This document shows positions 37,300-41,423 of a stretch of DNA of 64,000 bases, one piece after another; the stretch's first letter is position 1; each line of letters opens with the position of its first letter. The notes beneath the pieces are model-generated. The model was given only the letters and a program-made list of their open reading frames with translations. It did not search any database and was not told where the DNA came from. Both the position numbers and the translations under genes were made by a program. The stretch lies in sequence record PV636258.1; one strand, 5' to 3'. This DNA comes from a phage.

Positions 37300-37644
37300 A
37301 TGAAACTCAATAAGATTCTTCTGGTGTGTGCTCTGGCTTTCTCTACCACTGCATGCTCTACCCTTCTGGACGTTGCGTCTACTGTTGACCTCGATGCGCC
37401 GACGTTCACCAATCAGCAAGCGGTGAATAAGATGGAAGACACCATCAAGGCACATGCTGCGTTGGATAACACCACTCCTGGTCCGTTGCAAACTGTTTGC
37501 AATTATGACGATTCCATCCAGGAAGATGAAACCTATCACTGTACCACTTACGTGAAGGAATCTTCTGTGGTTCTGTATGCAGATTGCACAGAAGAGCAAT
37601 GCACCGCAACTGGTTATGATCAAGTGGAGAAGTCTGATGAATAA
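37300..37644 (+). CDS. Small secreted or lipoprotein-like protein
   Basis: MKLNKILLVCALAFSTTACS signal-peptide-like N-terminus with Cys after hydrophobic core; several further Cys. Confidence 0.5.
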   Translation: MKLNKILLVCALAFSTTACSTLLDVASTVDLDAPTFTNQQAVNKMEDTIKAHAALDNTTPGPLQTVCNYDDSIQEDETYHCTTYVKESSVVLYADCTEEQCTATGYDQVEKSDE

Positions 37645-38419
37645 TCATGTTGGTCTGTATGATGCCAATTCTAAAATCGGTGGAATGTATCGTATCCTGG
37701 TAGACGTAGACTTGACTTTGGTTGATAGCCTCTCCCCTTGGGTGGATTGGTTTAATATTTCCAATTCAAAAGCTGCTGCTGAAAACATGGGTTGTCATGA
37801 TTATCCCAATGATTTCCAGCGTATCACCAAAGAGTGCTATATGGCTCATGCTGGTGATTTGGCGATCCTCATGCGGGAACGCGCTCACCCAGCATGGTTG
37901 ACACGCCGTGTGTTTGTTGCTGGTCAATGGATGGATTCACCTACAGGACGTGATCCTATGGATTGGTGGCGCATGCCGGACCTGTATGCCAAGATGAACC
38001 CGCTTCCAGGCGCTTACGAGTTCCTGGTGAATCTGAAGAAGATCCTACTCGAAGACTTTGAAAATGTTGAATTGATCGCAGTATCTAAGTGTGAGCCAGA
38101 ACACGAGCGCAGCAAGCGCCAGTTTGTCTATGACAAGTTCCCTGGCATCTTCAACGGGTTTGTCAGCACCGACGAAAAGCATCTTTTGGCAGGTGATGTT
38201 TTAATTGATGATAACCCGAAATACGTTGAACCCTGTGCGATGAACAATATTTTTGTCATCTTTGTTCCTCAGGGAAATTATGAAAAACTGGATCTTTCGA
38301 ACTCGGAAGATATGCTTTATATTAAACCAGTAGAAGGCCAGAACCACTTCGACTTCCTGAACCGCAATATTGTCGAAGTGGTGAACCGCCTGATTGGCCA
38401 TTATCAATACGTCCATTGA
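37637..38419 (+). CDS. HAD-superfamily phosphatase (possible nucleotide monophosphatase)
   Basis: HAD motif I ILVDVDLTLV (DxDxT-type), later IAVSK and GDVLIDDNP; start at ATG 37637 with GGAG SD, overlapping upstream stop. Confidence 0.55.
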   Translation: MNNHVGLYDANSKIGGMYRILVDVDLTLVDSLSPWVDWFNISNSKAAAENMGCHDYPNDFQRITKECYMAHAGDLAILMRERAHPAWLTRRVFVAGQWMDSPTGRDPMDWWRMPDLYAKMNPLPGAYEFLVNLKKILLEDFENVELIAVSKCEPEHERSKRQFVYDKFPGIFNGFVSTDEKHLLAGDVLIDDNPKYVEPCAMNNIFVIFVPQGNYEKLDLSNSEDMLYIKPVEGQNHFDFLNRNIVEVVNRLIGHYQYVH

Positions 38420-38429
38420 GGAGGACATC

Positions 38430-38735
38430 GTGCAAGAACAATCTAAGTTTGGGGAAACCCCAGACAAGCGTTCCGGTGATAGCGATATGGATGGCGTTAT
38501 TATCCATGTGAACAACTTCATTCGTAAACAAACCACACCCACTTCCGTTGGTGCGGCGCTGGAATTAAAGCGTGTTCTGATAGAAAACGGTATGGCACCA
38601 GATGACGATGAAATTTTCTATAACTTCGACGACCAGTATAAAGTGAAGTTTGAAGAGAATGGCCGCCCACAGGTTGCTGTTTTCTGGTCTCCCTGGTTGG
38701 GCGGTGTGAGCTGGCGTATTGAGGAAGATGCATAA
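38430..38735 (+). CDS. Hypothetical protein (start uncertain, GTG proposed)
   Basis: GAGGAGG SD 5 nt before GTG at 38430; ORF track begins at a TTG inside the upstream gene. Confidence 0.4.
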   Translation: MQEQSKFGETPDKRSGDSDMDGVIIHVNNFIRKQTTPTSVGAALELKRVLIENGMAPDDDEIFYNFDDQYKVKFEENGRPQVAVFWSPWLGGVSWRIEEDA

Positions 38736-39640
38736 TGGCTAAAATAATTGTAGTGAAAGGCACCTCGGCCACGGGCAAGGGTACGAGAGTAGTCCAGTTC
38801 ATCGAATGGCTCCGAACTAAGCTGGAGCCTACTGAACTCACCTACACCATTGGTGACAAGACGCGCCCATTCGGCCTGAAGTTCGAAGAGCTGAAGTTAA
38901 TCTTCGTTGGCCAGTATACTGTGTCCAACAAATCCGGCCTGGCTTCCTGGACTTCCATGGACGCCATCCACGCCGCCACAGGCTCGGGTGATATCGCCCG
39001 TGATCTGGTCAAAGGCTGGCTGGCTCAGGGTTACACTTTGGTGTGCGAGGGTGAACCCCTCATGCTATCGGATAAATGGCGTCCTGAATGGATGTTCAAG
39101 AACTATCCGATTGAATCTCTGGCGTTGCTTTATTTTGCATACCCAGACCGCTATCAGTATGATGCACGCATCCGTGGTCGCTCTGGTAAGGAAGCAGGGG
39201 ACTCCGGCTGGTCACGCAACGAATCTTACTCCAAGGAGTTTGAGAAGTCGAAGACTGAAATGCTGGTGCTGGGTTGGGAAGTGGTGGTCAATGACTACAG
39301 CGGGCAAGACGTGTTGTACCGTCAATCGCCTACAAACACTCAAGAATTCAAAACAGGAAATGATAGCGAATTAGCCATGATGCCGTTTGATGCACCTTTA
39401 TGGGTGATTGGCAACGCTATTCATCATCAAATGCGTGGTGAGTTTCACGCCATGGGTCTGGACATCAAAGATTTCTACGGATTCTGTGAAACTGACCCAA
39501 TGACGCGTGAAGTCGGTGGGGATGATCCTCTAGCGCATCGAGTCCCTGAGAAGGCGACCAAATCTAAAACCAAGGCGAGCGCCAAGGGAGAGGTAACAAA
39601 GTCCTCTGTATCCCTTCTCGGCCTGTTGAGTAAGGGTTAG
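38735..39640 (+). CDS. P-loop kinase, candidate 5-hydroxymethyluracil DNA kinase-like
   Basis: Walker A VKGTSATGKGT at N-terminus; 301 aa; TAATG start overlap with upstream gene; specific substrate is inference from phage context. Confidence 0.55.
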   Translation: MAKIIVVKGTSATGKGTRVVQFIEWLRTKLEPTELTYTIGDKTRPFGLKFEELKLIFVGQYTVSNKSGLASWTSMDAIHAATGSGDIARDLVKGWLAQGYTLVCEGEPLMLSDKWRPEWMFKNYPIESLALLYFAYPDRYQYDARIRGRSGKEAGDSGWSRNESYSKEFEKSKTEMLVLGWEVVVNDYSGQDVLYRQSPTNTQEFKTGNDSELAMMPFDAPLWVIGNAIHHQMRGEFHAMGLDIKDFYGFCETDPMTREVGGDDPLAHRVPEKATKSKTKASAKGEVTKSSVSLLGLLSKG

Positions 39641-39642
39641 AA

Positions 39643-39846
39643 ATGAAACAGATGTCTAAATATTTTGTGTTCGTCGGATTGGTGATGTGTATCACAGCTG
39701 TGCTTGTCGGTGTCATGAAATATTTGGGCATCGTTGAGTTGGATTCAATCGAAATATTGAACGTTTACGCGTTATATTATTTGGGGGGTGCTATCTTATT
39801 AACGCCTTTCGTCTATAACATAATTCAGAGTTTCAAAAGGAATTAA
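39643..39846 (+). CDS. Small membrane protein (67 aa)
   Basis: Two hydrophobic segments (FVFVGLVMCITAVLVGV, ALYYLGGAILLTPFV). Confidence 0.5.
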   Translation: MKQMSKYFVFVGLVMCITAVLVGVMKYLGIVELDSIEILNVYALYYLGGAILLTPFVYNIIQSFKRN

Positions 39847-39847
39847 A

Positions 39848-40198
39848 ATGAAAATCCTCATTCCACGCAACGTTGTCGCTGTTGCTATTGATTACCGTGG
39901 TGATGCGAAGATGATTAACGCTGTCCGTTATTATCCGGAACAGAATAAAATCGTCCCACAATTTCAACTGAATACCAATCCTTCTTCTAAGGATTTCGGT
40001 TCTTGGCGTCAGGTGGGTTTGGCTCGTACCCAGGTCAATGCCCAGCATTTTATTTCCGAAAAGACGAAAACCGCCAAGCAAATTTGGTTGGTGACGAATG
40101 ATCGTCGTTTCCTGCCTATCTGGTCTCTGGGACAGCCCGTAGTAAGCCCCGAAGATATCCAACTCGAAGCCGAGGTGAAGGATGACGCATCTGTCTAA
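39848..40198 (+). CDS. Hypothetical protein (116 aa)
   Basis: ATG with AAAGGAA SD. Confidence 0.5.
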   Translation: MKILIPRNVVAVAIDYRGDAKMINAVRYYPEQNKIVPQFQLNTNPSSKDFGSWRQVGLARTQVNAQHFISEKTKTAKQIWLVTNDRRFLPIWSLGQPVVSPEDIQLEAEVKDDASV

Positions 40199-41423
40199 AA
40201 TGCCGCAGGGATATAAAGCCCCTGAAAAATGGAAATACCCGATTGATCTGGCAGTAGATTATCGTAAGCCAGAAAATCGCATGTACCTGCTCAAGGCATG
40301 GGTGGAGGCGCTATCCTACACTGAAGAGCATAACCAGCAAGTCCGTCTGATGGATTATGCCATCGAGGTTACAGAAGGCATCACACAGCTCGAAAAGATC
40401 GAGCGCAAGATTTGGATGGCCTTTTTGTGGGGGTGTTGCTATAATGGGATTGGACCATGGACAATTTACAGTGAATTTCCTGTACCCCCACAATCTCCGA
40501 AAGAGTTTCAGCGATTTTCTGATTGGTATAACCTGAATTTTGATCGTATGCGCTTCGATACAGATTGTCGTTATCGTAAGTCGAAAATGATTCCGTGCGT
40601 TCAGTCCTATATCGATTGGTTGGGTGGTAAAACCCAAATGGATTCTTTTCGTTGGATGTTGGAATGCACTACCAAGGAAGACCAGTTCACCGAACTGTGG
40701 AATACGGCGATGTCATGGAAATACTTCGGTCGCCTGAGCGCATGGAACTTCCTGGAAGCCCTGAACATGGTCTTCGGTAACATATGGGATATAGACGTCC
40801 CTGGGTTCATGTTGCGTGACCGTGATGGTAGCGAATCCAATCGTAACGGCGCGGCGTTCTTATCCAACCGTGATGATTGGGTGACCAAGCACGGGAAGAA
40901 AAAGATCAACGGTTGTCCTATTACAGACGAAGAATGTGATATACTCGAAACCGACCTTGAGAAAGCGTTTCAGGAATGCGTTGAAGAGTTTGGCCACATC
41001 ACGTTTATCAATCGTCTGAACTTTGAGACCTCCGGTGCTTGTTGGTTGAAGAAATTCTTCCGACTGAAGAATACCCGTTACATCGGGTGGGACGCCGAGC
41101 GTACATGGGACGAGATCGATTATATGGAACGTATTTGGCCTGAATACTCCTGTGCACCTCTCTGGGAAGCCCGTTCACTCTGGCTACCAGATACCCTGTT
41201 ATGTGAGAAGGCTCCTGCAGGGCACGTTCCAGGCGTCCAGAAGTGGAAGATGCCCGTGTTCTTTGAGACGGGTGTTCCTCTACATATCTGGCATTTACAG
41301 CAGGGTACACGTTGGGAACCGTCTGAGGTTTGTTTGTCAGTTGGTAAATTGGACACCATGAGCCGAAATGGTACTGTGTATCCTTCTAAAAGTGTGAACC
41401 TCATGACACTCTTGAAACGCTGA
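40182..41423 (+). CDS. Hypothetical protein (413 aa); possible DNA base-modification enzyme by context only
   Basis: ATG with GAGGTGAAGG SD; no motif recognised by eye; sits two genes downstream of the P-loop kinase. Confidence 0.55.
   Translation: MTHLSKMPQGYKAPEKWKYPIDLAVDYRKPENRMYLLKAWVEALSYTEEHNQQVRLMDYAIEVTEGITQLEKIERKIWMAFLWGCCYNGIGPWTIYSEFPVPPQSPKEFQRFSDWYNLNFDRMRFDTDCRYRKSKMIPCVQSYIDWLGGKTQMDSFRWMLECTTKEDQFTELWNTAMSWKYFGRLSAWNFLEALNMVFGNIWDIDVPGFMLRDRDGSESNRNGAAFLSNRDDWVTKHGKKKINGCPITDEECDILETDLEKAFQECVEEFGHITFINRLNFETSGACWLKKFFRLKNTRYIGWDAERTWDEIDYMERIWPEYSCAPLWEARSLWLPDTLLCEKAPAGHVPGVQKWKMPVFFETGVPLHIWHLQQGTRWEPSEVCLSVGKLDTMSRNGTVYPSKSVNLMTLLKR

Follow-up and report, generated by a model that had tools for sequence, protein, structure and literature searches.

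Our analysis of a 64,000-nucleotide stretch of phage DNA (sequence record PV636258.1; "the window" hereafter denotes this whole stretch) indicates, with a probability of about 0.93, that it is part of a Kuttervirus genome carrying three characterized enzymes of the pathway that makes the hypermodified thymidine 5-(2-aminoethoxy)methyl-2′-deoxyuridine (5-NeOmdU), with the predicted mechanism carried over from the orthologs of Salmonella phage ViI. An earlier note had proposed ViI-type thymidine hypermodification for a P-loop kinase (38735–39640), a HAD phosphatase (37637–38419), a 413-aa protein (40182–41423) and a pyridoxal 5′-phosphate (PLP)-dependent enzyme (29349–30551). The first three open reading frames (ORFs) are real and lie exactly where that note had placed them, on the + strand and 3′ of the family-B DNA polymerase gene. 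The proposal itself is borne out, with three of the four named proteins being orthologs of ViI gp243 (the kinase), gp247 (the 413-aa protein) and gp226 (the PLP enzyme) at 86–91% amino acid identity. As a pathway, the proposed group thus holds for these three, while the membership of the HAD phosphatase is by association only. Since the ViI orthologs had already been characterized, the gene group is in itself a rediscovery, and the gene functions are known from the published pathway; the new and testable extension is a clamp-type tail shared with the polymerase.

On nucleotide comparison, the window is best assigned to a ViI-like phage itself (Kuttervirus, Ackermannviridae), with PM10 and CBA120 as its nearest relatives, rather than to a phage that merely resembles ViI, because it is colinear throughout with ViI (NC_015296; 111.4 kb to the end of the record and on to 17.9 kb, with 82–93% nucleotide identity) and reaches 99% identity to CBA120 and PM10. 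Positions 1–23946 are 99.3% identical to Salmonella phage vB-SalM-PM10, and positions 37000–42000 match Escherichia phage CBA120 at 99.0% and Salmonella phage Chennai at 98.5% identity. The ViI/CBA120 system shares with the window its genus, gene order and orthologous enzymes; the differences are only allelic, namely variable linkers preceding the tails and a 216-bp indel 5′ of the transferase gene relative to CBA120.

The biochemistry of this pathway comes from ViI. Lysates with gp67, gp160, gp226, gp243 and gp247 convert DNA containing 5-hydroxymethyl-2′-deoxyuridine (5-hmdU) to 5-NeOmdU (Lee et al. 2018 PNAS, PMC5889632). Of these proteins, gp67 and gp243 act as kinases on 5-hmdU in DNA; gp247, in purified form, couples L-serine to the 5-phosphomethyl-2′-deoxyuridine (5-PmdU) so formed to give O-serinyl-thymidine; and gp226 is the PLP-dependent decarboxylase that yields 5-NeOmdU (Lee et al. 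2021 NAR, PMC8989533). The ViI reconstitution literature also records that the reaction without gp226 gives a product heavier by 44 u. About 40% of thymidine is replaced by 5-NeOmdU. We tied the gp numbers to accessions through the ViI record and Table 1 of PMC8989533. The earlier note had held that virion DNA with only canonical bases would speak against hypermodification; judged via CBA120, whose kinase (orf243) is 100% identical to that of the window over residues 1–288, this concern is allayed, as its virion DNA natively contains 5-NeOmdU (PMC8989533).

The kinase is a predicted clade-2 5-hmdU DNA kinase, the ortholog of ViI gp243 (86% identical by BLASTP; YP_004327565), with phosphorylation of DNA assigned through this orthology. 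Residues 1–300 of its 301 cover all 298 positions of the Pfam profile PF18747 (HMUD2, "5-hmdU DNA kinase 2"; E = 1.8 × 10−149; 497.3 bits versus a cut-off of 25). Its Walker A motif, G9-TSATGKG-T17 (38759–38785), retains G9, G14, K15, G16 and T17, which are invariant across four sequences of 42–86% identity. The relatives found from the kinase alignment were restricted to the enterobacterial Ackermannviridae, and the more distant lineages considered below were reached via transferase homologs and their contigs. A Limestonevirus, Dickeya phage RC-2014 (locus L006, 6392–7885), has a clade-2 kinase with 44% identity as the C-terminal part of a 497-aa coding sequence labeled "endonuclease", with the genes around it for the HAD, DUF7254 and transferase proteins being 79–85% identical, a pattern suggestive of the cassette having been replaced or of a fusion.

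The earlier note had regarded the 413-aa protein as being of unknown fold, which can now be corrected. Pfam PF18724 (ADDT) matches residues 49–292 (E = 1.9 × 10−57; 195.1 bits versus a cut-off of 26.2), and the protein is 87% identical to ViI gp247 (BLASTP; YP_004327568). It is best classified as an amino acid:DNA transferase (AADT; formerly aGPT-Pplase clade 2) orthologous to gp247, for which serine transfer is predicted by orthology. The comparison with known transferases that had been advised was run at the level of the fold: the AlphaFold (AF2) model (mean predicted local confidence, pLDDT, 90.3) retrieved as its best PDB match 8Z2M, the structure of PaMx11 gp46 (rank 1; probability 1.00; TM score 0.54, normalized to the target), with the helix-hairpin-helix (HhH)-type AGOG glycosylases following at ranks 18–19. 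A globular domain spans residues ~1–380, and C129 and C287 are invariant in 26 homologs. PaMx11 gp46 (PUGT), a 5-PmdU glycinyltransferase with Cys247 as its proposed nucleophile (PMC11472151), is the only solved amino acid:DNA transferase and the sole convincing PDB fold match of the 413-aa protein, and Table 1 of PMC8989533 places it with the ViI-type enzyme in one aGPT-Pplase2/AADT class. However, the two share just 13% sequence identity and no sequence or profile link, and whereas PaMx11 gp46 has 287 aa and couples glycine via its amine, the ViI type has ~410 aa, couples serine via the side-chain oxygen and bears a linker and tail.

The ORF of the PLP enzyme (+ strand) is likewise real, and the enzyme, which the earlier note had tentatively placed in the same pathway, does appear to belong there, being 91% identical to ViI gp226 (BLASTP; YP_004327553). 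The top PDB folds for its AF2 model (pLDDT 91.4) are D-cysteine desulfhydrase and 1-aminocyclopropane-1-carboxylate (ACC) deaminase, among them 1j0a, which has been cited as the template of gp226. Its K65 (29541–29543), invariant in 34 homologs, aligns with K92 of gp226, the lysine assigned in PMC8989533. The protein is thus predicted to be the orthologous O-serinyl-thymidine decarboxylase, with the model confirming fold-type II. The label "threonine ammonia lyase", attached to it in UniRef and GenBank, is misleading for a decarboxylase.

Given that each step has been shown for the ViI proteins, we infer that the window proteins, at 86–91% identity, act as they do. In the pathway so predicted, 5-hydroxymethyl-dUTP would be made by a phage dUMP hydroxymethylase encoded beyond the window, and the family-B polymerase (34243–37239) would incorporate 5-hmdU in place of part of the thymidine. 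After replication, the kinase would convert 5-hmdU in DNA to 5-PmdU by moving the γ-phosphate of ATP onto its hydroxymethyl group; the AADT would then let the side-chain oxygen of free L-serine displace this phosphate to form O-serinyl-thymidine; and the PLP enzyme would decarboxylate the latter to 5-NeOmdU at ~40% of T, blocking many restriction enzymes. The ThyA-like dUMP hydroxymethylase, a deoxynucleoside monophosphate (dNMP) kinase, a dUTPase-like pyrophosphatase, gp67 and gp160 are encoded at 36–39 kb and 87 kb of ViI, outside the region corresponding to the window; the genes for gp67, gp160 and the hydroxymethylase are thus missing from it because they are located elsewhere in the genome.

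Across the families, orthology, folds and motifs examined, no result was at odds with the assignment to the 5-NeOmdU pathway. Two results limit its support: the PLP enzyme matches Pfam PALP below the gathering score (26.5 versus 35), and 8Z2M stayed out of reach of PDB sequence and profile searches, be it with the 413-aa protein, with a profile of 26 sequences or with a fragment of 63 aa around C287. It could also be asked if the kinase is instead a guanylate or dNMP kinase acting on free nucleotides and not on DNA. "Guanylate kinase" is the RefSeq label of CBA120 gp189 and ViI Vi01_196 as well as the name of PHROG 4409. A closer affinity to dNMP kinases, which the earlier note had named as a ground for abandoning its proposal, is nevertheless not what we found: at E ≤ 10, HMUD2 is the sole Pfam match, with no family of dNMP, guanylate or thymidylate kinases among the results, no relative was retrieved from the PDB, and NCBIfam is empty, as it was for all five proteins searched. 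Together with the phosphorylation of 5-hmdU in DNA by the 86% identical gp243, this renders such an activity on free nucleotides exceedingly improbable, and the label is an inherited misnomer.

Beyond the individual enzymes, one short peptide is common to the C-termini of the polymerase (KRRVNLLSMMGKKG, its last 14 residues, 37195–37236), the kinase (SSVSLLGLLSKG, 39602–39637, following a variable Lys/Ser-rich linker) and the transferase (KSVNLMTLLKR, 41388–41420). The decarboxylase holds it as SKSVSLAGLLSGI (30201–30239), not at its C-terminus but in an internal flexible loop, while in ViI, gp160 ends in GSVNLLDRLKKPE. The form found in the enterobacterial phages is basic, VNLLxMMxKK. The polymerase aligns with RB69 gp43 up to the C-terminal end (phmmer, E = 7.5 × 10−112), such that its tail pairs with the last residues of the latter, EKKASLFDM(FDF). 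In 23 further Ackermannviridae loci, conservation of the peptide contrasts with hypervariability of the linker preceding it; in the transferase model, this linker (residues 391–405) is disordered, and the decarboxylase model is of low confidence solely in the peptide-bearing loop (residues ~281–310).

As to specificity within a genome, a regular expression derived from these sequences has only six matches among the 1794 stop-to-stop segments of the ViI genome, namely the polymerase, gp243, gp247, gp160, gp226 and the 70-aa cysteine-rich Vi01_049c. Ranking by the polymerase tail alone placed gp247, gp243 and gp160 in the top 7 of 872 other ViI segments (chance ~3 × 10−7) and the corresponding three proteins of Vibrio phage K452 in the top 4 of 678 (chance ~8 × 10−8). 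In the Ackermannviridae and the distant loci compared, the HAD, DUF7254 and neighboring ORFs never bear the tail, and it is likewise absent from the ThyA-like enzyme, the dNMP kinase and the dUTPase-like enzyme. Of the two remaining reconstituted proteins, gp67 is without it and its presumed partner gp160 has it; gp160 is an "HMUDK helical domain" protein, and SP10 gp186 and locus L040 have this domain fused to the kinase. ViI and K452 were also searched for the tail on their gp55-like sigma factor, ligase and RNase H, without success, and only the gp33-like protein of K452 fits. As a separate observation, Vi01_049c (ViI 30355–30567) and VPHK452_0080 (K452 58223–58528) are both cysteine-rich (CxC...CxxC), share 30% identity over 60 aa and each carry the polymerase-type tail of their own lineage; the gene for the latter is directly 5′ of the DNA ligase gene in K452, and that for the former lies ~2 kb from the ligase gene in ViI. 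These proteins may be further clients of the sliding clamp.

The form of the peptide differs by lineage (VNLLxMM-KK, KKLW, S/ALW, SLFDF, NVLDFF) and co-varies within each genome. Comparing the C-terminal sequences, or in the case of the decarboxylase the internal loop, we saw the shared peptide in loci L005 and L036–L040. In K452, whose kinase is 40% identical to that of the window, the polymerase ends in ARKLW, the kinase in KTKKLW, the AADT and the Vi01_049c homolog in KTRKLW, the gp160-like protein in VTKRLW and the gp33-like protein in KTKRLF, and the decarboxylase loop reads KTRKLFG. The metagenomic contig L038 displays TSALW in the polymerase, TNDLW and KSSLW for the kinase, ENALW in the AADT and ENSLW in the gp160-like protein. 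The tails in L036 are VSLEDFFS (split polymerase), ILEFFDIFH (kinase) and LSLFDF (AADT); those in L039 are TKNVFDIF (kinase), NANVLDFFG (AADT) and TKSILDLL (gp160-like). L037 shows TASLSGFFGN (kinase), TANLNAFFS (AADT) and TKSVFDI (gp160-like), and the decarboxylase homolog P0096, probably from the same phage, has the loop TASLSSFFGE. The most distant AADT and PLP homologs are without the tail, as are the AADT and kinase homologs of L041, a contig of 32 kb whose called genes include none for a clamp or clamp loader.

As the shared tail sits at the position by which the RB69 and T4 polymerases bind the clamp, it would be explained most simply if the post-replicative enzymes were clamp clients. 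The C-terminal peptide of RB69 gp43 has been co-crystallized with the sliding clamp, and T4 gp43, gp55 and gp33 have such clamp-binding tails, each behind a divergent flexible linker (PMC2988020). We consider the chances somewhat better than even that the sliding clamp, by remaining on new DNA, serves as a tether for the post-replicative pathway as a whole, which would couple hypermodification to replication. From the distribution of the peptide, this reading would extend across the T4-like thymidine-hypermodifying phages and take in the kinase of clade 2, the gp160-type helical protein that partners the clade-1 kinase, the AADT and the PLP enzyme loop. Similarly, DNMT1 is coupled to PCNA in eukaryotes. 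As in the case of the T4/RB69 clamp epitopes, a short hydrophobic peptide stands at the extreme C-terminus behind a flexible linker and is common to the polymerase and other clients; the differences are that the clients here are base-modifying enzymes, one of them with the peptide in an internal loop, and that the form is basic whereas that of T4 is acidic. A second precedent is the T4 α-glucosyltransferase, likewise a post-replicative phage DNA-modification enzyme, which binds the clamp gp45 (Sommer 2004, confirmed in PMC13216743). It belongs to a different enzyme family and acts on a different base, hydroxymethylcytosine (hmC), and its clamp contact is not the main determinant of the modification level; PMC13216743 describes no polymerase-like tail common to a whole pathway. 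The word "clamp" is absent from PMC5889632 and PMC8989533, and the searchable literature, the coverage of which does not extend to Iyer et al. 2013 and the EcoSal review PMC11163837, yielded no link of the clamp to thymidine hypermodification. Thus, a tail shared by the polymerase and DNA-acting enzymes appears to be unreported.

Certain features sit uneasily with the clamp interpretation: in the K452 polymerase, RVNLFALGG is present internally, 28 residues ahead of the terminal KLW, and the gp55-like and gp33-like proteins of ViI show no clear match to the polymerase tail. They can be accommodated if the peptide is not a clamp epitope but an amphipathic membrane-targeting tail, a means of contacting some other replisome hub (e.g., the single-stranded DNA-binding protein (SSB) or the helicase) or a degradation tag. 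The two motifs of the K452 polymerase could then conceivably serve two distinct partners, and the Vibrio-phage form, a basic linker followed by KLW, is indeed unlike the acidic T4 motif. Against these options, the polymerase peptide aligns residue for residue with the very RB69 gp43 C-terminus that was co-crystallized with the clamp, and some lineages have near-canonical T4-type tails (LSLFDF, NVLDFFG, NVFDIF). Even the divergent K452 form recurs at the end of its gp33-like protein, and the C-terminus of T4 gp33 is a known clamp epitope (PMC2988020). Moreover, the homologs in L041 are tailless on a contig where no clamp or clamp-loader gene is seen, and the T4 glucosyltransferase sets a precedent for binding of gp45. 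We consider a function other than clamp binding the less likely reading.

The HAD phosphatase (260 aa; 86% identical by BLASTP to ViI Vi01_194) belongs to the NT5C family of 5′(3′)-deoxyribonucleotidases (Pfam, E = 7.3 × 10−08; 32.9 bits versus a cut-off of 24.8). Its catalytic motifs are intact (DVDLT, residues 23–27, 37703–37717; LIDDNP, residues 189–194, 38201–38218), and weak PDB matches are to the deoxyribonucleotidases 3bwv and mdN, relative to the former of which it has an extra cap segment of ~45 residues. The gene lies between those for the polymerase and the kinase in all Ackermannviridae examined, in K452 and in L038, with homologs of 22–30% identity within a few kb of the AADT and kinase genes in L036, L037 and L039. 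HAD homologs are almost confined to phages that also carry the kinase, a distribution that does not separate its possible roles.

Most plausibly, to judge from its family, the HAD acts on free deoxynucleotides, trimming the dTMP/dUMP pools as in other phages with 5-hydroxymethyluracil (hmU), since it is an NT5C protein, is without the tail of the DNA-acting enzymes and is dispensable for reconstitution. Several facts count against a firm place for it in the pathway or against this role: it is absent from the five proteins that reconstitute the modification (PMC5889632); its membership rests by association only on the conserved gene neighborhood; and an NT5C homolog adjoins the AADT in L036, a phage of the Tet/JBP type, where depletion of dTMP would be of little use if 5-hmU is made by oxidizing thymine in DNA, as we assume from the Tet/JBP gene. 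The last point, along with the persistence of the gene near those of the AADT and kinase and its intact motifs, would suit an enzyme that acts on DNA after replication, e.g., by dephosphorylating unused 5-PmdU and thereby setting the modified fraction. We consider this improbable, because the members of the NT5C family act on free deoxynucleoside monophosphates, reconstitution in vitro worked without the HAD, the tail is never found on it, unlike on every DNA-acting enzyme of the pathway, and dTMPases are already an established part of hmU-phage nucleotide metabolism (PMC8989533). In the L036 locus itself (8616–13251 of Logan contig ERR12510853_90671, from a T4-like phage), a Tet/JBP dioxygenase gene stands next to those for an AADT, a kinase of the Ploopntkinase3 type and an NT5C phosphatase.

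The string of genes running from the polymerase to the AADT lies on the + strand, with neighbors that abut or overlap and a Shine–Dalgarno-like sequence 5′ of most of them. The polymerase, of the family-B T4/RB69 type (Pfam DNA_pol_B_exo1 and DNA_pol_B), was listed as an ORF at 34084–37239; its real ATG is at 34243, giving 998 aa, the length annotated in CBA120 and ViI. It is followed by a putative lipoprotein (37300–37644), the HAD gene and a 101-aa DUF7254 protein with a GTG start at 38430 (38430–38735; Pfam PF23912, 4.1 × 10−52; PHROG 3911), which enterobacterial Ackermannviridae keep at this position, between the HAD and the kinase. Some records label the latter "thioredoxin", a candidate function that we rejected as there is no CxxC motif. 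Between the kinase and the AADT are a 67-aa two-helix membrane protein (39643–39846) and a 116-aa protein (39848–40198), with the function-unknown PHROGs 4514 and 4163 covering both of these small ORFs. The two are absent from between the kinase and AADT genes of K452, and they are probably not parts of the pathway because they are not conserved in this Vibrio-phage module. The 216-bp presence/absence polymorphism (~40100–40200) is seen relative to both CBA120 and aagejoakim, in which the 116-aa ORF and the transferase gene are separated by an additional ORF of 61 aa, labeled "membrane protein", that the window and ViI are without. Downstream of the AADT are a 55-aa membrane ORF (41459–41626) and, from a consensus scan only, a terminator-like hairpin at the end of the string (41652–41687, + strand), with a 16-bp stem and then a T run. 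A promoter scan did no better than chance (30 found versus 24.6 expected from shuffles) and was not used.

Elsewhere in the window, four tRNA genes (Met-CAT, Asn-GTT, Tyr-GTA and Ser-GCT) occupy an otherwise coding-sequence-poor stretch (25665–27359) 5′ of the tail needle knob gene. The tail-spike block on the − strand (~8580–18592) has four large ORFs with only short conserved pieces relative to ViI and 99% identity to PM10, and is the usual exchangeable host-range module of Kuttervirus. A 220-aa ORF (61967–62629) has a weak PP-loop ATPase signature (Pfam QueC 3.4 × 10−05, ThiI 4.4 × 10−04), and its ViI ortholog is labeled "QueC-like".

These results show that the database labels "guanylate kinase", "threonine ammonia lyase" and "thioredoxin" are wrong for the respective proteins. 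If the shared peptide is indeed a clamp tail, it would explain how three to four unrelated enzymes find fresh DNA and act on it sequentially, and it would offer a handle on why only ~40% of the sites are modified. It would also provide a simple sequence signature by which DNA-acting modification enzymes could be found in T4-like phages, and it would add base hypermodification to replication and late transcription as the processes known to involve clients of phage sliding clamps.

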